Virus record (IMG/VR): IMGVR_UViG_2579779009_000005
Source: a virus
Taxonomy: Duplodnaviria; Heunggongvirae; Uroviricota; Caudoviricetes
Strand: one strand, 5' to 3'
Length of the DNA: 45,234 bases
The notes beneath the pieces are model-generated. The model had not been told where the DNA came from. It worked only from the letters and a program-made list of their open reading frames with translations, and made no database searches. The position numbers were made by a program, and so were the translations under genes. Shown here piece after piece: positions 24,636 to 35,945 of this stretch (within the stretch, counting starts at the first letter, position 1; each line of letters begins with the position of its first letter).

Positions 24636-24670
24636 GCAAATAAAAAAGCCCAAGGCGTTAACCTCGGGCT
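24636..24670 (-). terminator. Intrinsic terminator (first of tandem pair)
   Basis: Stem agcccgagg-uuaacg-ccuugggcu followed by uuuuuuauuug on the minus transcript. Confidence 0.6.
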
Positions 24671-24724
24671 TGAATTCTTTGTGTCGACAATCAAAGCTAT
24701 GGCGACGATATCAGATTTACATGA

Positions 24725-28558: not shown

Positions 28559-28941
28559 AGTCCGTTTATCATAGAATAAAAGGCCCCTAGGGGCCTTGAT
28601 TTATATCTATGGTAACTCTCGTCAACTTGTTCGTCACTTCACCTGCTGCGGAGCTGCTGCGAGCATCGTACGATAAGCAGATGCATGGTAAATGCCATGT
28701 GACACCCAGGCGGCATTAAGCATATCTGGCGTTGGCTCCTTCTGAACCATCACCCAACCATCCGGAATCACCGGAGAGTTGCTATCTTGCGTGGCACCCT
28801 GAAGCATGGCGGCGCGAGCGGTATGAGCAAAGTATTCTTATAGTCGCGGCGATGACGTGCCATGACCACCCAATTTATCTGGACAAATCACTGGAGCTAT
28901 AGGATACATAATTGCATTTTAGCTAAAGGCGTTAACTGATT

Positions 28942-29379
28942 ATGTGGCTTACTGTTTTTACTACAATTATCACTGGTGTGACCGTCTACATCATAGGTCA
29001 AATAATAACCAAATGCGCATTGGAAACGTACATCTCGTTCAAGGAGCATCTGGGAAGAATTTCGTCACTCTTACTTCGCGAGCAAAGTAAAATAATGAAT
29101 TTTAAGCCAAATAGCGAATTAATACATGAGCTAAAGGCGTCATCAGGTCTTTTAATTGCAAAATCGAAAGCAATCCCATTCTATAATTTTTTCTCAAAAA
29201 TAGGCCTTACTCCAGTTTACAGCGATGTGATTGAAGCGTCACACCAACTAAATTTAATAGCTTCCATCTTAGAAGGCGGCAACAATTCATATTCCAGTAA
29301 TCCATCTCCTTCAGGCCAATCCATCTACTCTTCTTTGAAAATCATTGGAGAAAAGCTTGATATAATTGTTTCGTACTAA
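28942..29379 (+). CDS. Membrane-anchored hypothetical protein (opposite-strand moron)
   Basis: 145 aa with an N-terminal TM helix (LTVFTTIITGVTVYIIGQII). Very AT-rich. Opposite orientation to the surrounding operon. Confidence 0.5.
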   Translation: MWLTVFTTIITGVTVYIIGQIITKCALETYISFKEHLGRISSLLLREQSKIMNFKPNSELIHELKASSGLLIAKSKAIPFYNFFSKIGLTPVYSDVIEASHQLNLIASILEGGNNSYSSNPSPSGQSIYSSLKIIGEKLDIIVSY

Positions 29380-29531
29380 TTTATTGCACCCGTACTGTTT
29401 TCTGTGCCCGTCAGCACGGGCTTCTCATGATCATAAAGTGCAGCGATTCCGCACGCGTTACAAGATATCCAATTGAGGTTATCGTCGTCATAATCAAATT
29501 CAGCCTTTCCATCGCAGTATGGGCAAGGCAT
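29376..29531 (-). CDS. Small zinc-ribbon protein (Lar-like?), not in ORF track
   Basis: 51-aa ORF MPCPYCDGKAEF...CNACG with two CxxC pairs. ATG overlaps the stop of the upstream ORF. Confidence 0.4.
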   Translation of the reverse strand: MPCPYCDGKAEFDYDDDNLNWISCNACGIAALYDHEKPVLTGTENSTGAIN

Positions 29532-29791
29532 CAGGTCGTTTTCACATCCACTGCTGGCGATAAAAGAGCGTTACTCAGCAGTACATAACCCGGTATCCAG
29601 TTACCAAGCTCAGCGACATGTGTAACGGTGACTTTGGTGAATTCACCGGTAAAGGCTTCTTCGTTCGGGTCCCACTCGCACAGATCGAGATTGTCGCCTG
29701 CCTGGTAATCTCGGTCATTCCATCTGAGCTCTGCACGCTTCTGTCCTGCGCGAACGGCTGAATAGTACTCAGGCCAAATCTTCAGATGGTG
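29531..29791 (-). pseudogene. ASCH/PUA-like (DUF3850-like) ORF lacking a canonical start codon
   Basis: 86-codon open frame HHLKIWPEYYSAVRAGQKRAELRWNDRDYQAGDNLDLCEWD... The codon preceding it is TAA and there is no in-frame ATG/GTG/TTG at the N-terminus. Confidence 0.35.
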
Positions 29792-29815
29792 TTACTGTTT
29801 TCTTGTAAATAATAC

Positions 29816-30115
29816 TCATACCCCTACCCTCCCCCAAACCATCAATACTCGCTTCATGGCCGGACTGTTCCGGCACTCCAGAAATATTCCGTTGGTGCAG
29901 CTGCGCGCGGTACCAGCCTGCTCTTCCGGCGTCGCCTGGCGATAAGTCACTGTTCGCCAGACCTTACTCACCCGGACAATCTTGCGGGCCCGCTCCAGGT
30001 CGATAGCGTTCTTCGTGATGCAGTTGATGGTCATGCCGCACTCTGTGGCCACATCCTTAGCAGTGAAGGTCCGGTGCCTTTCGAGATAACGCAGAATTGC
30101 CTGTTTGCCTTTCAT
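29816..30115 (-). CDS. ren: Ren-like protein
   Basis: Start revised to MKGKQAI (ATGA overlap with the helicase stop). Motifs KVWRTV.YR.AT.EE and ECR.S.AMKRVL match remembered lambda Ren. Confidence 0.6.
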   Translation of the reverse strand: MKGKQAILRYLERHRTFTAKDVATECGMTINCITKNAIDLERARKIVRVSKVWRTVTYRQATPEEQAGTARSCTNGIFLECRNSPAMKRVLMVWGRVGV

Positions 30116-31548
30116 CAGAAGCCCCCTTTCTTTTTCGGCTGCTGCTCGCGCCCGCGGCATTCTGCGGCAGCGGTCTGCTGGTCTGTGTCGTGAATTGCCC
30201 CGTTGAGCTGATTGCAATAAACCGTGCCGGTACTGCCATGGCGGTTGAGTCGCAGGATTAACTCGGTTTCGCCTGGCGGCACACTGTCATCGAAAGCACC
30301 TTCCCGATGGATACCAACCCAGTAGTCGCAGTCCTGTTCAATCTGTCCTGTGTCGCGGGAATCGCTCGGTAATGGGCGTTTATTCACTCGCTTCTCCAGT
30401 TCTCGGTTGAGCTGGGTCAGCAGGACGACGACGCAGCCAAGCTCTTTGGCGAGGTTCTTCAACCCTTTGGTGATCATCCCGTAGGCTAGGTCATTGCGGT
30501 CTGCTTTTTCGGCAGTCATCAGCGTCAGGTAGTCAACCAAAATCATGCCTACGCAGCCTTTCTCGCGCTTAATTCGACGGCATTCGGTAACGATATGCGC
30601 CAGGGACAGGCCAGGAGTGTCGTCGATGTACAGCATGTCGATTTCACTTAGCCGACTGGCTGTGGCGATCGCCTTCTTAAAGTCGCCGTCGTAGTCGCCC
30701 TGGTACTGGTCATCGGCGTCATCCGTGGCGGGCATGTAAAAAATGCTCGGGTTAATGCCGGACTTCTGACCAACCAGTTTTTCAAGGATCTGGTCTCCCG
30801 GCATTTCCAGGCTGAACATCAGCGCTGGCTTTTTCTCACGAACCGCGCAGTTGATCGCCATCTGCCCGTACAGGGTTGTCTTGCCCATCTTTGGCCTTGC
30901 GCCAATCACGAACAGAGAGCCTTTAACCAGACCTTTCGGCGCCAGCAGCCGGTCGAGTGACGGGATACCGGTACTCATACCGCGCTGTTCGCCTGAAGGG
31001 TCAAATCGTTTCTCCAGATCTGCTACCCAGTCATCCATAACCTCGCCGAACGAACGTAACCCACGGCGACTGCCGGTTTTTGAATGGTCTGCGAGCTGGG
31101 TGAAAATACCCTGAATGGCCTCGTACTTCTGCGTGGCGCTCATGCCGTTTCGGGAATACAGCAGCTCAGTAGCTTCGGTCAGACGGTTGATACCGTAGCG
31201 CTCCATTGCGGCTTCCCGGACTGATGCTGCGTATGCCACGATGTTTGCAGCGCTCGGTGTGTTTTTTGCGATCTGCGCGATGTAGGCGAAACCGCCGATC
31301 TGCTCCGTAAGGCCTTTGCTTTCCAGAGCGTCGAAGAGTGTTAACCCATCGACTGGCTTGTTCGCGCGGAACATGTCACGTAATTCAGCGAAGACGATCT
31401 GATGAACCCGGATATAAAACGACTCAGGCTTGAGCATCGCAAGAACCTTTTGGACTCGCTCGCTGTTGTCATCGTCCAGCAGCAGGCCACCGATAACGCT
31501 CTGCTCTGCTTCGAGGTTGTGAGGTACGGTCAGGATTTCAGAGGTCAT
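30115..31548 (-). CDS. Replicative DNA helicase, DnaB-like
   Basis: Walker A GARPKMGKT, a DnaB-like N-terminal domain (LEAEQSVIGGLLLD) and a RecA-like core. Start revised to MTSEIL. Confidence 0.8.
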   Translation of the reverse strand: MTSEILTVPHNLEAEQSVIGGLLLDDDNSERVQKVLAMLKPESFYIRVHQIVFAELRDMFRANKPVDGLTLFDALESKGLTEQIGGFAYIAQIAKNTPSAANIVAYAASVREAAMERYGINRLTEATELLYSRNGMSATQKYEAIQGIFTQLADHSKTGSRRGLRSFGEVMDDWVADLEKRFDPSGEQRGMSTGIPSLDRLLAPKGLVKGSLFVIGARPKMGKTTLYGQMAINCAVREKKPALMFSLEMPGDQILEKLVGQKSGINPSIFYMPATDDADDQYQGDYDGDFKKAIATASRLSEIDMLYIDDTPGLSLAHIVTECRRIKREKGCVGMILVDYLTLMTAEKADRNDLAYGMITKGLKNLAKELGCVVVLLTQLNRELEKRVNKRPLPSDSRDTGQIEQDCDYWVGIHREGAFDDSVPPGETELILRLNRHGSTGTVYCNQLNGAIHDTDQQTAAAECRGREQQPKKKGGF

Positions 31549-32440
31549 CACAGGCCCCCTCGCGCGTCTTGGCGTACACATCGACGTTCAGGAAGTATTC
31601 GAGAGCCTTGCGGCGCCACGTGCGTCCTGTGCGCTGGTCCGGGCGGTTTTCCAGCATCCAGCGGCAGTTGGAGGCGATGTAGTTCAGATACGCTTCCCAG
31701 TCCGCCAGGCTGAACCCAGACCCGCCGAGTTGGCGATTGGCGGCTGCTGCTTTTTTCCAGAAAGTTCGGATCATGGTACGGCGCTTGTCAGTCAGGATTT
31801 TGATGCCCTGAGCTTCAGGCAGTACACGGTGATAAATCTCGACGACCTGCTCACAGCTGATTGACGGTTTTTTCTGTTCTGGTTTTTCTTCTGCTGATGC
31901 ACTCTCTCTTACGTTAGTAAGAGAGTTATTTAATATATTGTTATCTGTGGACACTGGCTGGACATCGGCTGGACACTCCACCTCCCCAGGCATTGGTACT
32001 ACTGCGTTTGCGCTGGACACTGGCTGGACATTGGCTGGACAAAAATTTGACTGATATTCGTCATACTTGACCACTTTTAGAACAGTAAAACGGTTGTTCG
32101 ATTTGGTGGTGATCATGCCCAGGTTCTGGAATTTACGGAGTAGTGATTTAACGCGATCAGCGGTCAACCCCGTTTCCATTGCCAGCGTGTTTCGTCCGGT
32201 AATGAACTCTCCGCGTTCGCAGATCACATCGCCGACATCAGTCGATACCAGTGTCTGTTCGTGATTAGCGCGCAGGAGCAGGTGAACCCATAAATGAGCC
32301 GCTTCAGCGTCCTTGTAGAACGGCACATCCATAATTTTACGGTGCAGCAAGGCAAACCCCTTACCGCCATTCGTACGCGGTTTCTGGAGCCTTCTAGCCT
32401 CTCTGGCTTCGGCTAAATTGGATACGTTACCCACGGCCAC
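31538..32440 (-). CDS. Replication initiator (lambda O-like) containing ori
   Basis: 300 aa, upstream of the helicase. Iterons and an AT-rich tract lie inside the gene; the repeated peptide CPANVQPVS / CPADVQPVS is encoded by them. Confidence 0.65.
   Translation of the reverse strand: MAVGNVSNLAEAREARRLQKPRTNGGKGFALLHRKIMDVPFYKDAEAAHLWVHLLLRANHEQTLVSTDVGDVICERGEFITGRNTLAMETGLTADRVKSLLRKFQNLGMITTKSNNRFTVLKVVKYDEYQSNFCPANVQPVSSANAVVPMPGEVECPADVQPVSTDNNILNNSLTNVRESASAEEKPEQKKPSISCEQVVEIYHRVLPEAQGIKILTDKRRTMIRTFWKKAAAANRQLGGSGFSLADWEAYLNYIASNCRWMLENRPDQRTGRTWRRKALEYFLNVDVYAKTREGACDDL
31944..32045. repeat. Origin iterons (two clusters of three ~11-bp repeats GGACAYYGGCT) with flanking AT-rich tract
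   Basis: Direct repeats ggacactggct ggacatcggct ggacactcc ... ggacactggct ggacattggct ggacaaaaa inside the O-like gene. Confidence 0.65.
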
Positions 32441-32660
32441 TCTCCTTACGTTTCAGTTCTTCCAGAATGGCGCGCATCTTCTCTGCCACAATCGGATTAA
32501 CCGAGCGGATGAAGCGGTCGCGGGTTATGTTTTTATGTACAGCGGTATGGTAATAGCGTGGATTTTTTGCCATTATTCCTCCTGCAACTACTCTCGTTTT
32601 TGCACCAGAAAGTCGGTTCTGTTCGCGCAGACCGGCTTTCGCCATTTCTGTAGTTCTCAC
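32427..32660 (-). CDS. Small basic hypothetical protein
   Basis: 77-aa ORF with GTG start overlapping the upstream stop (an ATG 15 nt downstream is an alternative). Overlaps the tabulated O start by 14 nt. Confidence 0.35.
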   Translation of the reverse strand: MRTTEMAKAGLREQNRLSGAKTRVVAGGIMAKNPRYYHTAVHKNITRDRFIRSVNPIVAEKMRAILEELKRKESGRG

Positions 32661-33199
32661 ATAACCCCCAGCATCGAAGTGACCATGGCCATCAGCGGCG
32701 CGGTCAGGTCTGGGTCGACACGGAACATCTCTACAATCCCCTCACTGAGTTCCTTGAGCTTCTGGTGACGCGGGGCATTCATCGCAACGGCAACTTTCGC
32801 CTCGCTCGTTTCCTTCTCAAGTCGCGCTAAGCGGGACATGAAACTGTCCTCCGGAAGAAGTCGATGACGATACTCCAGCGGAAGAACGGCCATGATTGCC
32901 GGTGTCAGCTGGCGCACGTTCTCGCGGTACTGTTCGGAGTCGAAACGGTTATCCAGGAAGCGAAACAGTTTCTGGCGCGCCCGGCTGATGTCTTCCGGAA
33001 AGCTGATGGAGGTCCCGCCCTGCTCCCGGTATTCGTTGATGATCAGCGCTGACACCACGTCCTGATTGTCCAGCGCCGACGACCATGCACGGACAGCATC
33101 GCGGATCTTTTCGTGGTCTGGCGCCGCTTTAGCTTGAGCGCGGTTTATCATCGCTCCCGGGTGTATTCCGGTATTGTGTTGATACGCAAGTGAATGCAT
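32657..33199 (-). CDS. Early regulatory protein in CII position (family uncertain)
   Basis: 180-aa ORF immediately downstream of cro. RBS aaggga. Confidence 0.4.
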   Translation of the reverse strand: MHSLAYQHNTGIHPGAMINRAQAKAAPDHEKIRDAVRAWSSALDNQDVVSALIINEYREQGGTSISFPEDISRARQKLFRFLDNRFDSEQYRENVRQLTPAIMAVLPLEYRHRLLPEDSFMSRLARLEKETSEAKVAVAMNAPRHQKLKELSEGIVEMFRVDPDLTAPLMAMVTSMLGVM

Positions 33200-33228
33200 T
33201 GCTTTCCCTTTCGTGGTTAGGGCCGCCG

Positions 33229-33450
33229 TTAAGCGGCTGTAGATTTTTCGGGGTCATCCCCAAACAAAAGCCATTCTGGTTTGCACTTTAGAGCGCGAGC
33301 CAACTCAACCAAATAACGTGGGCGCTTCGTAACTCCGGCCTCAATAGCCTGAAGAGATTGCTGCTTCATGCCCGCCAGTTTTGCTAACTGGTCCTGAGAG
33401 AGGTTCATCTCTTCACGTTTTTGCTTGAGGCGTTGAGAAATTGTTTCCAT
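33229..33450 (-). CDS. cro: Cro-like repressor (HTH, XRE family)
   Basis: 73 aa with an HTH (LSQDQLAKLAGMKQQSLQAIEAG). Divergent from cI across the tripartite operator. RBS ggagg. Confidence 0.8.
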   Translation of the reverse strand: METISQRLKQKREEMNLSQDQLAKLAGMKQQSLQAIEAGVTKRPRYLVELARALKCKPEWLLFGDDPEKSTAA

Positions 33451-33459
33451 ATCACCTCC

Positions 33460-33518
33460 ACAGTTTTATCTGTATTCTGTGACAGTTATTTCTGTTTGTC
33501 AATTACAGTTTAAACTGT
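33460..33518. promoter_or_regulatory. OR: three operators ACAG-N6-CTGT with pR candidate
   Basis: ACAGTTTTATCTGT (33460-33473), ACAGTTATTTCTGT (33482-33495), ACAGTTTAAACTGT (33505-33518). pR candidate on the minus strand: TTGACA (33497-33502), 17-nt spacer, CAGAAT. Confidence 0.75.
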
Positions 33519-33567
33519 GACTATCTGGTAAGGGATCGGGTAACTTTTTCTGCCAGGATGCAGGCTA

Positions 33568-34236
33568 ATGAAAACAAGAAGAACTGAAGAGAATGAGGAC
33601 GCTGTGAGTCTTGCAGATCGCGTAAAACAGAAAAGAGCTGAACTAGGGCTAACTCAGGTAGAAGCTGCTGAGATGGCTGGTATACGTCAGCAGTCCTGGC
33701 AAAGCATTGAAGACGGGAAAACCCTTAAACCTCGTAATATAATTGGTATAGCCAAGGCGCTTAAATGTGATCCGGACTGGCTGATGAACGGCGGCGCATT
33801 CATGCCGATGGCTGAGGTTAATAGCAGGAGAGTACCGTTGATAAGCTACGTTCAGGCAGGAGCCTTAGCTGAAAAGAATCCTATAGAGGCCTTTGACGGT
33901 AGTCTTGAATACATATTGACCGATCTCGACGTCTCCCAATACAGCTTTGCTCTTCGTATAGAAGGCGATTCAATGGAGCCTGACTTCAAAGCTGGAGATG
34001 TAATTATCGTTGATCCAGAGATAGAGCCTACCCCGGGCGAATTTGTAGTTGCCAAGAATGGAGGAACACAGGCAACATTCAAAAAATACCGCCCAACCTG
34101 GATTGATCCCAAAGGCTGCCAGCACTTTGAGCTGGTCCCTCTGAATGACGACTACCCCGTGATTAATAGCGATCAACAGCCATTAACTATTATCGGCGTG
34201 ATGATTGAACACCGTATTTACCGCAGAAAGCGCTAA
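33568..34236 (+). CDS. cI: CI repressor (HTH + S24 LexA-like peptidase)
   Basis: N-terminal HTH, an Ala-Gly cleavage-site candidate (VQAGALA), catalytic Ser in GDSMEP and a downstream Lys. Confidence 0.85.
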   Translation: MKTRRTEENEDAVSLADRVKQKRAELGLTQVEAAEMAGIRQQSWQSIEDGKTLKPRNIIGIAKALKCDPDWLMNGGAFMPMAEVNSRRVPLISYVQAGALAEKNPIEAFDGSLEYILTDLDVSQYSFALRIEGDSMEPDFKAGDVIIVDPEIEPTPGEFVVAKNGGTQATFKKYRPTWIDPKGCQHFELVPLNDDYPVINSDQQPLTIIGVMIEHRIYRRKR

Positions 34237-34257
34237 CTCCACCCTCCTCTTCAAATC

Positions 34258-34281
34258 AACCGGCTTATGCCGGTTTTTTTT
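34258..34281 (+). terminator. Intrinsic terminator after cI
   Basis: Stem aaccggc-ttat-gccggtt followed by tttttttt. Confidence 0.6.
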
Positions 34282-34311
34282 CGCCCGCACAAAAATAAAT
34301 CCAATGGAAAT

Positions 34312-34384
34312 ACAGATAGATATGTATTTACCCATCAAAATACAGTTTTGTCTGTTGACGATATTACAGTTTTATCTGTATCTT
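34312..34384 (+). promoter_or_regulatory. OL operators with pL candidate
   Basis: ACAGTTTTGTCTGT (34342-34355) and ACAGTTTTATCTGT (34366-34379), plus the half-site variant ACAGATAGATATGT. -35 TTGACG at 34355-34360 and a -10-like TATCTT about 18 nt downstream. Confidence 0.6.
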
Positions 34385-34389
34385 TAATC

Positions 34390-35059
34390 CATCGAAACGA
34401 AACATCGACAGCTGAGCGAAGTTAGCCAGCGGCGGACAGCAAGTCGCCTGCTCATTAACAACATGCAGATTTACAGCGTCAATGACCTGTTTAGACCCTT
34501 ACACGAGAAACGTGCTGTATCACCGGGTGCGATCCGGTCGGTGAGAGAGTATCCCCGCGCGAGAGCGAGAACGGCGTGAGAACGGGCAACACTGGCAGAG
34601 AGTTGGCGCTGATTCACCAATGAAGCACTAACGCGGACAGACTGCACTTTCAAGCCGCAGTAATGATGCGGCCCCGAGTCTCCGAGAGAGAGCCAGACGC
34701 AGGCCCGAACTGCGACATACCGCTGGTCAGGGTTAATCGAGGAAAAGGGTATGCCGGTAAAGCAGCGCGAACGCCAGACGCGCGCCGGTTATGAGCGGCG
34801 ATGAGCGACAAGGTCTCAAGGGCATGAGCGCGGCCACTGCGAGAGTGTGGCGAAGTGCTTTGGGGTGTGGTGGCGGTGTCCTCAAGCGAGGTGCAACGCT
34901 AGCAGCGCGATAAGACCTGAGAACCAGCTGAGCCAGTTGTGTAAAGGCCAATACGACAATAGGGCGTTCAGGAAATAAGTGAGAGTGGCGACTCAGTGCC
35001 AGTCAACCACACCGACCAAAGCATTTCTCCCGCATCAGCGGGTAACGACAGAGGGTAAG
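34390..35059 (+). other. ORF-poor GC-rich pL leader; candidate cis-acting RNA region
   Basis: About 650 nt downstream of pL with no plus-strand ORF above ~43 codons. Short direct repeats (atgagcg x3, gagaacgg x2) and several stem-loops including cacg-AGAAA-cgtg. Confidence 0.3.
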
Positions 35060-35263
35060 GCGATGGATTTTAAGAAAGGAGATGTTGTTACGTGGTCAAG
35101 CCAGGCCGCGGGCAGCTGGAAGACGAAAACTGGTGTGATTACGGAAGTGTGGGAATACAAAAAACAAACGCGTTACACCGTAAAAGTTGATCCGAAGGAG
35201 GGGTCAACGGCGAAACCGAAGTTTTACTACCCACGCACATCAGCACTACAGAAAGTGTCATGA
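35060..35263 (+). CDS. Small hypothetical protein, first gene after pL
   Basis: Start revised to MDFKKGD (RBS gagggtaagg). 67 aa. Followed immediately by a terminator. Confidence 0.45.
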   Translation, partial: AMDFKKGDVVTWSSQAAGSWKTKTGVITEVWEYKKQTRYTVKVDPKEGSTAKPKFYYPRTSALQKVS

Positions 35264-35284
35264 CCCGCTCCGGCGGGTTTTTTA
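35263..35284 (+). terminator. Intrinsic terminator after first pL gene (tL1-like)
   Basis: Stem acccgctccggcgggt followed by ttttttt on the plus strand. Confidence 0.6.
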
Positions 35285-35404
35285 TCGGCCATACATAGGC
35301 AGATTTTCGAGTCTGCCCATTTATGACAACCGGCGGCCATCCACCGCCCATTAGCGCAGAAGTCTTTTAACGTTCAGCAGCCCGGCTTAAGGGCGGAGAT
35401 GATT

Positions 35405-35578
35405 ATGTCAAAACATTGTGAAAATTGCGGATGCGCAATCCGATCCGGATATTGCACAAACTGCCAGGAAGAAGCGTTTATCGCGTTCGTTCAGGCCCCT
35501 GAGATGGAATTTAGTGAAGAGTTCTTGCGTGAAGCATTCCGTCAGGACTTCGAGGCAAATCGCCGGGAGGGATCATGA
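35405..35578 (+). CDS. Small zinc-ribbon protein (57 aa), not in ORF track
   Basis: MSKHCENCGC...CTNC. RBS ggag. Stop overlaps the next start. Preferred over the tabulated overlapping ORF 35418..35630. Confidence 0.4.
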   Translation: MSKHCENCGCAIRSGYCTNCQEEAFIAFVQAPEMEFSEEFLREAFRQDFEANRREGS

Positions 35579-35739
35579 CAGTCACCCACAACGGCAAGCA
35601 GTACACAGTAAAGCGCTGTGCCCTGAATAATAACGAATGGCGGTTAACGTCGCTCACCAATACGCGCGAACAGGTCACACTGAACCGCTGGCAGATGCAC
35701 GTTTCTGGTTTACTGGCTCAGGTGGAGGGTAAAAAATGA
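35575..35739 (+). CDS. Small hypothetical protein (54 aa), not in ORF track
   Basis: ATGA-coupled at both ends (MTVTHNGKQYTVKRC...). Confidence 0.35.
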   Translation: MTVTHNGKQYTVKRCALNNNEWRLTSLTNTREQVTLNRWQMHVSGLLAQVEGKK

Positions 35740-35945
35740 TGTCGCACTACGGAACTACACCGCTCATTCGCCAGTGCGTCACGCCCGGCATGATGGCAAT
35801 GCATGAAGGCCGAACCTATCGCGTCTCAGCAGTCATTCAGGAGCGCAAATGGGTGTACCTGCACACCGATGCAGAAATCATACGCCTCAGTGACTGCGTG
35901 ATTGACGTCCTTCTGGACGGTCACGGCAACCCTATCCAGCACTAA
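35736..35945 (+). CDS. Small hypothetical protein (69 aa)
   Basis: Translationally coupled to the upstream small ORF. Confidence 0.4.
   Translation: MMSHYGTTPLIRQCVTPGMMAMHEGRTYRVSAVIQERKWVYLHTDAEIIRLSDCVIDVLLDGHGNPIQH

Follow-up and report, generated by a model that had tools for sequence, protein, structure and literature searches.

Two solutions to early antitermination, a textbook paradigm, are known in the lambdoid phages, namely N bound to nut and the put RNA, which works in cis without any phage protein and loses its activity through rpoC mutations in the zinc-binding domain. put is about 70 nucleotides (nt) long, consists of two stem-loops and acts via the β′ zinc-binding domain (PMC9378689). 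Furthermore, boxA-dependent protection of untranslated RNA is established for rRNA operons and for clustered regularly interspaced short palindromic repeat (CRISPR) arrays (PMC4807359, PMC7665894). Here we analyse a 45,234-nt stretch of DNA that is a lambdoid prophage (IMG/VR record IMGVR_UViG_2579779009_000005; its whole length is called the window below), and in it the leader of the early-left (pL) operon, which carries a boxA followed by a conserved structured RNA domain at the position of put or nutL. We call boxA and domain together module A and propose, from its context, that it is a cis-acting antitermination RNA assisted by boxA and Nus factors; we put the probability of this reading at roughly 0.45, slightly short of even odds. 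All coordinates are those of the window and, unless stated otherwise, of its plus strand.

Positions 34390-35062 form an untranslated, modular regulatory leader of the pL operon, a mosaic of conserved non-coding blocks in which modules A and B are structured RNA families, module C is a variable spacer and module D leads into the first gene. Searched by BLAST against phage genomes, the leader is found in separate pieces only, never at full length. The pattern is beyond chance, since every block is conserved in numerous phages that are unrelated to one another, and extensive compensatory base-pair changes are seen in two of the blocks. About 670 nt without a credible gene lie between pL and the ATG (35063) of a gene for 66 amino acids (aa), the plus-strand open reading frames (ORFs) within 34390-34978 not exceeding 43 codons (34463-34579, 38 aa; 34663-34794, 43 aa; 34791-34913, 40 aa; 34847-34978, 43 aa). 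GC content is 55-62% over 34400-34999, 38-49% upstream in the immunity region and promoter (33300-34499) and about 50-55% in the downstream genes. An earlier, sequence-only reading of this stretch had described just such a GC-rich, ORF-poor leader after pL, with frames of 38-43 codons, three copies of ATGAGCG (34791, 34801, 34824) and two of GAGAACGG (34568, 34578), and all of this is borne out; its figure of about 650 gene-free nt fits the distance to ATG 35063, the RefSeq/PGAP gene model (start at GTG 34979) giving about 590 nt. That reading offered three candidates for the leader, a put-like RNA as in HK022, a degraded N/nutL region or an uncharacterised structured RNA. The third is the correct one, and what the reading overlooked is the near-consensus boxA and the split of the leader into two RNA families.

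The boxA, TGCTCATTAACAA (34449-34461), has one mismatch to the pattern YGCTCTTTAACAA, which we take to be the rrn boxA consensus, and is the sole match to that pattern in the window at two or fewer mismatches. It is kept as YGCTYTTTAACAA in all 28 aligned relatives, PA2 reading TGCTCTTTAACAA, and adjoins the 5′ side of the module A fold in every homologue, the fold beginning 12 nt further on. The structured domain of module A spans 138 nt (34474-34611; covariance model R1, 150.9 bits, E = 4e-40). Two long-range closing helices, P1 (34476-34481 with 34604-34609, GCGUCA/UGGCGC, and GCACAU/GUGUGC in Klebsiella types) and P2 (34487-34491 with 34594-34598, CUGUU/GGCAG, and GUAAC/GUUAC in Edno5), are followed by P3 (34496-34498 with 34584-34586, CCC/GGG), which closes a four-way junction with the hairpins P4, P5 and P6. 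P4 (34502-34514, CACG-AGAAA-CGUG) is the stem-loop that had been called boxB-like; the stem-loop is real, with A-U to G-C covariation in nine of the 28 sequences, but its identity as a boxB does not hold, the hairpin being one helix of a larger fold, 40 nt from boxA, and its loop varying in sequence and length (AGAAA, UAAA, AAAA, UUAA or CAAA). P5 (CACCGGGUGCGAUCCGGUCGGUG, 34521-34543, CACCGG-G-UG-CGAUC-CG-G-UCGGUG) is nearly invariant across six genera, with changes limited to a compensated C-G to U-A pair (PA2, Xenorhabdus) and to U or C in the internal loop (alignments A2 and A3). All module A sequences were fetched with a pattern inside P5, and all those of module B with a pattern across its conserved core; these patterns partly impose the invariance of P5 and of the B core and miss members that differ there, covariation elsewhere being unaffected. 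P6 (34555-34574, CCG[CGC-GAGA-GCG]AGAA-CGG) holds the first GAGAACGG repeat, and the second lies in the junction just 3′ of P6, which reads GAAnGGGnAA in all relatives (GAACGGGCAA in the window, 34580-34589). Compensatory variants of P6 occur in locus L025 (CCU/AGG) and in Edno5 (CAG/CUG and CCC/GGG), and Klebsiella-type relatives have unrelated hairpins at its position.

Aligned with two diverged copies, those of Klebsiella phage ST13-OXA48phi12.2 and of Edwardsiella phage Edno5, the window shows a conserved boxA and, 3′ of it, helices with compensatory changes. In alignment A2, which comprises the 28 non-redundant sequences, 96.0% of the cells are paired and 12 of 32 pairs are changed on both sides; none of 500 shuffles matches the observed values, and 3′ partners that have been slid along pair at 27-43% with one to three covarying pairs. 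RNAalifold predicts P1-P5 unaided from the same sequences, P6 having been added to its structure by inspection, and single-sequence folding gives P1, P2, P3, P5 and the inner P6 stem. Comparative folding of the kind that the sequence-only reading had proposed as a check thus finds the leader conserved and structured across its relatives. Neither module A nor module B matches Rfam 15 at gathering thresholds (whole window), and scanning 34300-35400 at E <= 10 yields nothing relevant, the matches being confined to operator or promoter DNA or to the surroundings of the terminator hairpin where the first gene ends. No paper with the sequence or a description of module A was found in the literature searched, a search that did not extend to King et al. 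2011 on put-like RNAs.

Module A is carried by at least 120 IMG/VR contigs according to the core pattern, and by species representatives of Enterobacter, Kosakonia, Kluyvera, Citrobacter, Xenorhabdus and Escherichia according to a looser one. Over 34385-34612 the window is 96.5% identical to phi80 (from the pL -10 onwards), 98% to Klebsiella phage KO-TP1 and 97% to HK225, and over 34449-34612 it is 92-93% identical to about 100 Stx2a-converting phages, including PA2, TL-2011c, P13374 and VT2phi_272. Carriers among the Stx2a phages of the P13374/Phi-191 type have been reported to be without N (PMC4122784). A single copy is present throughout, with one covariance-model match in the 45-kb window (filters off) and exactly one in each of 86 related loci. 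Its position is constant as well: all six annotated carriers (phi80, HK225, PA2, KO-TP1, ST13-OXA48phi12.2 and Edno5) have module A in the pL leader, past the immunity genes, and in 39 of 105 unique contexts the closest same-strand gene upstream encodes an S24-type repressor.

What follows module A is, by contrast, hyper-diverse, with first genes of more than 50 unrelated families in about 100 loci, beginning from less than 30 nt to more than 1 kb after P1; no conserved partner gene was found beside it among these loci. Terminators recur downstream. In 60 of 83 unique loci (72%) a strong sense-strand intrinsic terminator is found no more than 2.5 kb away (median 437 nt), at 0.90 per locus on the sense strand versus 0.20 on the antisense strand, so the arrangement of one gene followed by a terminator, which had been described from the window, is a recurrent one. 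In the window the terminator found by scans is GACCCGCTCCGGCGGGTTTTTTAT (35262-35285), a 7-bp GC-rich hairpin with a T-run, positioned like tL1A, which the phi80 annotation places 3′ of the phi80 ‘N’ gene. Past it, on the same strand, come a small Zn-finger-like ORF, a phrog_6396 protein, kil, a 322-aa protein, gamL, bet and exo. No homologue of the N proteins of lambda, P22, phi21 and mEp213, of Nun or of phi80 ‘N’ was found in the 45-kb window by tblastn (all E > 0.1; hand-typed queries for lambda, P22 and phi21 N), and Pfam N_peptide has no match in the four pL-proximal proteins scanned (35063-35942), which agrees with the view from the sequence alone that no N-like Arg-rich protein is evident. 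Neither of the two findings that the sequence-only reading had named as refuting it was thus made.

Module A is most like put or nut. As with put, the nascent pL leader of a lambdoid phage without N folds into a structured RNA, and terminators lie further on. HK639, which has an annotated putL-like antiterminator RNA, and CobraSix share the first 50 transcript nt of the window and its module D, and hold put between these flanks; because put stands there where the window holds modules A, B and C, two alternative RNA cassettes fill the same leader interval. An HK022-type put is nevertheless not what the window contains. First of all, the core motifs AACCAUGCGUCGG and UCAGGAnGAnCGGCAAU are absent from the leader at three or fewer mismatches, counts being at or below chance, and BLAST with HK022 putL finds HK75, O276, phiEt88, CobraSix and HK639 and no module A phage. 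Second, the architecture is different, module A having 138 nt, six helices, two multi-branch points, a four-way junction and two long-range closing helices. Third, put comes in two copies, putL after pL and putR after pR, and need not be preceded by a boxA; module A has one copy, and a boxA belongs to it. The HK022 put motifs GAACGGCG and GAACGGCAA do resemble GAGAACGGCG and GAGAACGGGCAA of module A (34568-34589), a weak lead noticed post hoc. As a separate observation, Enterobacter phage BHUENT6 (L308, 1201-1490) has the same pL start, a truncated boxA TGCTCATTAAG, a different insert of about 170 nt and then an HK639-gp45-like gene; perhaps this insert is yet another cassette, the third, that can occupy this place in the leader.

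With the nut sites of lambda, which act together with N and NusA/B/E/G, the window shares a boxA at the 5′ end of an early-operon leader, a hairpin downstream of it and a first gene followed by a terminator, and in phi80 and PA2 a GU-rich, boxC-like motif comes after module A. The hairpins differ, however: lambda boxB has a GNRA-like pentaloop about 8 nt 3′ of boxA, whereas P4 is 40 nt away and has an A-rich, variable loop of 4-5 nt that mostly lacks the leading G. Lambda moreover has an N-family protein and a nutR, and the window has neither, as judged by tblastn, by Pfam on the four proteins and by scans for boxA and module A. The boxA of the window, like that of PA2, is nearer to the presumed rrn consensus than is lambda's CGCTCTTA, and as in the rrn and CRISPR systems it heads a long untranslated and highly structured transcript. 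Those boxA systems are described as mainly anti-Rho (NusB-NusE-NusA-NusG-SuhB), while in the window strong intrinsic terminators lie downstream. The rrn leaders have the order boxB-boxA-boxC, whereas the window has no transcript hairpin 5′ of boxA and its boxC-like motif lies beyond the 138-nt domain and module B; the domain itself has no counterpart in rrn leaders.

A further comparison is with phi80 (M11919, X13065, JX871397). Because 34385-34612 is 96.5% identical to phi80, module A belongs to the same element as the ‘putative nutL’ of that phage. The GenBank record marks the boxA site TGCTTTTTA as ‘nutL boxA’, and its ‘nutL core’ (2619-2630), which reads CACGTAAACGTG, is helix P4. The phi80 records thus hold only a 9-nt boxA and a 12-nt core, and no conserved 138-nt fold: a small part of module A is already known, and the large conserved fold is what is newly recognised. 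phi80 has no module B, its order being module A, the GU-rich motif, a spacer and module D, the last matching the sequence before phi80 N; phi80 ‘N’ is replaced in the window by the unrelated 66-aa gene.

How might such an RNA act? We infer that the nascent boxA would recruit the host NusB-NusE(S10) as RNA polymerase leaves pL, and that the module A fold, with P1 and P2 as stacked closing helices and P3-P6 as a four-way junction, would substitute for N-boxB of lambda or for the put of HK022. The domain would then stay with the elongation complex and render it termination-resistant, so that pL transcripts would survive Rho in the untranslated leader, pass the terminator at 35262-35285 and reach kil, gam, bet, exo and beyond. 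Neither the lasting association with polymerase nor the antitermination activity would, on this proposal, depend on a phage protein. P5 and the junctions hardly vary between Escherichia, Xenorhabdus and Edwardsiella, which would speak for a conserved target in the host more than for a fast-evolving phage protein, if only weakly, because every sequence was fetched with a pattern inside P5. A stronger form of the proposal has two parts. In it, module A is a self-sufficient ‘protein-free nut site’, in which boxA-NusB-S10 and a four-way junction replacing N-boxB lock polymerase in a termination-resistant state, in phi80, HK225 and the N-less Stx2a phages of the O104:H4 / O103:H25 type; module B is a new and widespread class of structured phage RNA, about 200 nt long, found in antiterminated operons and with an activity of its own. 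We regard this stronger form as conceivable and on balance doubtful.

Several points weigh against module A as a protein-independent antitermination RNA. The phi80 GenBank records name the adjacent gene N and the region nutL, and a 1985 study is said to have characterised N, nutL and tL1 of phi80; if phi80 ‘N’ truly acts here, a trans factor is involved in at least phi80. Two of 140 module A loci, Edno5 and one relative, do have an N-family gene; these 140 loci were scored as module A by the core pattern together with an upstream boxA-like motif, and beyond the window ‘no N’ means none within the collected locus of 2-15 kb. There is no second module A or boxA on the nutR/pR side in the window, each phage having one module A and none in its pR operon. 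The single-sequence folding energy of module A is ordinary (z = -0.7). Finally, boxA alone could account for protection from Rho, in which case the fold would have some other job.

One rival is that module A is a genuine nut site, at which a phage antiterminator outside the N family binds the fold together with Nus factors at boxA, this protein being the 98-aa ‘N’ in phi80 and, for example, the product of the 66-aa first gene in the window. The phi80 records place N, the nutL boxA, the nutL core and tL1 at exactly these positions, a first gene and then a terminator is the classical N arrangement, Edno5 pairs module A with an N-family gene, and the first-gene product of the window is a small beta barrel that weakly resembles KOW-type and large-subunit ribosomal-protein barrels. 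Nonetheless, more than 50 unrelated families follow an RNA that is near-invariant, P5 in particular, and many proteins reading one RNA is an unlikely arrangement. phi80 ‘N’ itself has neither a Pfam N_peptide match nor an N-terminal Arg-rich motif; it stands directly after module A in six of about 100 loci and anywhere in the locus in only nine of the 140; and the window has no nutR-like copy. Taken together, we consider a dedicated protein partner of this kind unlikely.

The candidate protein of the window is encoded at 35063-35263 and belongs to phrog_11941 (PHROG E 6e-23). It has no Pfam match and 35 homologues, all of them close. AlphaFold2 predicts a small all-beta barrel (predicted local distance difference test score, pLDDT, 92.4), whose resemblances are weak, to SH3-like barrels of large-subunit ribosomal proteins (Foldseek E 0.02-0.1) and to a ‘KOW domain-containing protein’ (profile E 0.38), so that a KOW-like fold is at most suggestive from the model. 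A role as a NusG-like KOW decoy was also considered and set aside, the fold and profile matches being too weak to claim it. The gene had earlier been given as 35060..35263; the gene and its end stand, and its start moves to ATG 35063 behind GAGGG, which is preferred for its good Shine-Dalgarno sequence and because phi80 N starts at the corresponding place. In E. coli M10 the RefSeq/PGAP model (L307, 5595-5879) instead begins at GTG 34979, giving 94 aa and running through the non-coding module D, and its N-terminal 28 residues are probably untranslated.

Module D (35006-35065) consists of the hairpin CCCGC-AUCA-GCGGG (35029-35042), the Shine-Dalgarno GAGGG (35051-35055) and the ATG. The cassette, CAAAGCATTTCTCCCGCATCAGCGGGTAACGACAGAGGGTAAGGCGATG, is about 95-100% identical in phi80 (before ‘N’), HK639, CobraSix and BHUENT6 and 86.5% identical in KO-TP1, with unrelated genes following it; copies elsewhere in the collection lie at L001 2860-2920, L005 1995-2047 and L308 1965-2019. 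From this pattern, module D could be a portable module for translation initiation or a recombination junction.

A different account is that boxA only shields a long untranslated transcript from Rho, the folds of modules A and B being cargo RNAs with another job, for instance to capture a host or defence protein as a decoy or sponge, to govern processing or stability, or to control how the first gene is translated. Some 670 nt of untranslated RNA with a boxA at its 5′ end is an obvious Rho target, and such protection has its precedent in rRNA operons and CRISPR arrays (PMC4807359, PMC7665894). Module B, the second structured RNA family (34648-34852; helices H1 34655-34671, H4 34754-34788, H6 34833-34851 and further ones), does look like portable cargo. 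In alignment A6 (28 diverse sequences, eight-helix structure) 96.4% of the cells are paired and 19 pairs are changed on both sides (104 cells), with a covariation score of 0.32 against 0.10 in shuffles; none of 500 shuffles matches the observed values, and slid controls pair at 23-39%. Its pattern finds at least 120 further viral contigs, and 34652-34850 matches mEp237, RothC/D, mEp213, Stx2c phages, Hafnia phage yong1, a Providencia phage and phiKO2 by BLAST. Its places are several. It directly follows Q antiterminator genes, which make up the top two clusters of upstream ORFs (10 and 6 loci, of the RothC and mEp237 types); it precedes N-family genes by 100-180 nt in 15 loci (mEp213 gp47 and yong1 among them); in 12 loci it separates genes of the lysis region from terminase; and it follows module A, the A and B cores then being 294-310 nt apart in 18 of 20 loci, among them the window. 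No boxA is nearby in 76 of 106 unique contexts. Because these contexts are varied and mostly without boxA, module B behaves as a portable element of long phage operons that is not tied to module A; it is a separate structured RNA inserted in the leader, and we assign it no antitermination role.

For module A the cargo account fares less well. boxA lies upstream in 140 of 140 module A loci, which is the scoring criterion itself, the independent observation being the single copy and its position in the pL leader. HK639 and CobraSix hold a put antiterminator between the same flanking leader segments, and intrinsic terminators lie downstream in 72% of the loci; boxA/Nus complexes alone are not known to suppress intrinsic terminators. 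We therefore judge mere shielding to be about as improbable as a dedicated protein partner.

Much less probable still is a role of module A as a riboswitch or attenuator, with early-left expression gated by a metabolite or signal that it senses. It would suit such a role that several helices meet in a compact junction within a 5′ leader and that the nucleotides of this junction are invariant, but there is no conserved expression platform, the next gene being less than 30 nt to more than 1 kb away and no alternative terminator/anti-terminator pairing being conserved after P1; no Rfam riboswitch matches at E <= 10, and an obligatory boxA is not a riboswitch trait. Least credible of all, since both the covariation and the missing protein homology already contradict it, is that the leader is a decayed N gene with a nutL remnant and no present function, the second candidate of the sequence-only reading: the leader does occupy the N position of lambda and has a 17-codon Arg-rich frame, MPVKQRERQTRAGYERR (the MPVKQ mini-ORF, 34752-34805), but tblastn finds no similarity to any N family queried, the mini-ORF starts inside the H4 stem of module B with the three ATGAGCG repeats just 3′ of H4, in or next to conserved module B parts, its ATG is absent in relatives, the substitutions are compensatory in stems and not codon-patterned, and modules A and B are 65-99% identical across genera.

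Further features of the leader are as follows. The variable spacer, module C (34853-35005), matches, over 34852-35022, only two Yersinia phages, at 82% identity, and opens with the GU-rich motif CTTTGGGGTGTGGTG (34858-34872). The same motif lies directly after module A in phi80, PA2 and many viral contigs, whereas in mEp213 and yong1, as in the window, it comes after module B. It may be boxC-like, or else mark a joint at which modules recombined. At the other end, the initial transcribed region (34385-34448) is near-identical in phi80, HK225, KO-TP1, HK639, CobraSix and BHUENT6, BLAST giving 100% for CobraSix and 96% for HK639 over the first 50 nt and 98.7% for BHUENT6 over 76 nt. A promoter scan places pL at 34355-34384, sigma70-like, with TTGACG (34355-34360), an 18-nt spacer and TATCTT (34379-34384); this -10 aligns with the annotated phi80 pL -10, and transcription starts near 34391. 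Upstream of pL are a cI-like LexA-family repressor gene (33568-34236), with its own terminator at 34258-34275, and, from 33450 and in the direction opposite to the pL operon, cro-, cII-, O- and helicase-like genes. E. coli M10 (NZ_CP010200.1, 979414-980319) is 100% identical over 34385-35290; the exact leader combination occurs in two of 5,426 complete E. coli genomes, and some part of the leader in 289.

Some further RNA features of the window and of related records may be mentioned. The sole Rfam match in the window is isrJ, on the minus strand at 24645-24721 (60.8 bits), directly after a Q-like gene (25426-24737), behind a sigma70-like promoter (24753-24725) and ending in an intrinsic terminator (24671-24646); it looks like the short pR′-tR′ late-leader transcript of the prophage, the counterpart of lambda 6S RNA or StxS, and not a free-standing small RNA (sRNA) gene. 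The prophage sRNAs Pas, AgvB and AsxR, which are short, terminator-ended Hfq sRNAs at other locations, were compared as well and have no match to the modules. On the transcribed (minus) strand of the pR operon (28600-33500) the sole terminator-like site reported by the scan is a perfect, palindromic GC-rich hairpin, AAGGCCCCTAGGGGCCTT (28580-28597), scored as a terminator on both strands, and no boxA or module A lies upstream of it on the minus strand. In several phage records minus-strand ‘hypothetical proteins’ are annotated across the RNAs, namely CobraSix gp51 (L010, 1315-1671) across put, QBP27550 (L011, 1434-1868) of ST13-OXA48phi12.2 across module A and RothC XDI99236 (L008, 1909-2145) across module B; such calls are probably spurious, because the plus strand shows RNA covariation.

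Left-operon expression has been unexplained in many lambdoid phages without a recognisable N. One of them is phi80, both a classic of the laboratory and a frequent contaminant; others are the Stx2a phages from the lineage of the 2011 O104:H4 outbreak. A boxA-linked conserved fold at the put/nutL position gives these phages a concrete and testable candidate, with P5 and the junctions as a defined RNA for genetics and cryo-electron microscopy. It also brings to light two abundant RNA families of enterobacterial prophages that are missing from Rfam and that several phage records overwrite with spurious ‘hypothetical protein’ calls. Should a phage protein be required after all, module A would be the RNA target of an unknown class of antiterminator. 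If, on the other hand, the ‘protein-free nut site’ is true, it would be a third and structurally new solution to early antitermination in the lambdoid phages.

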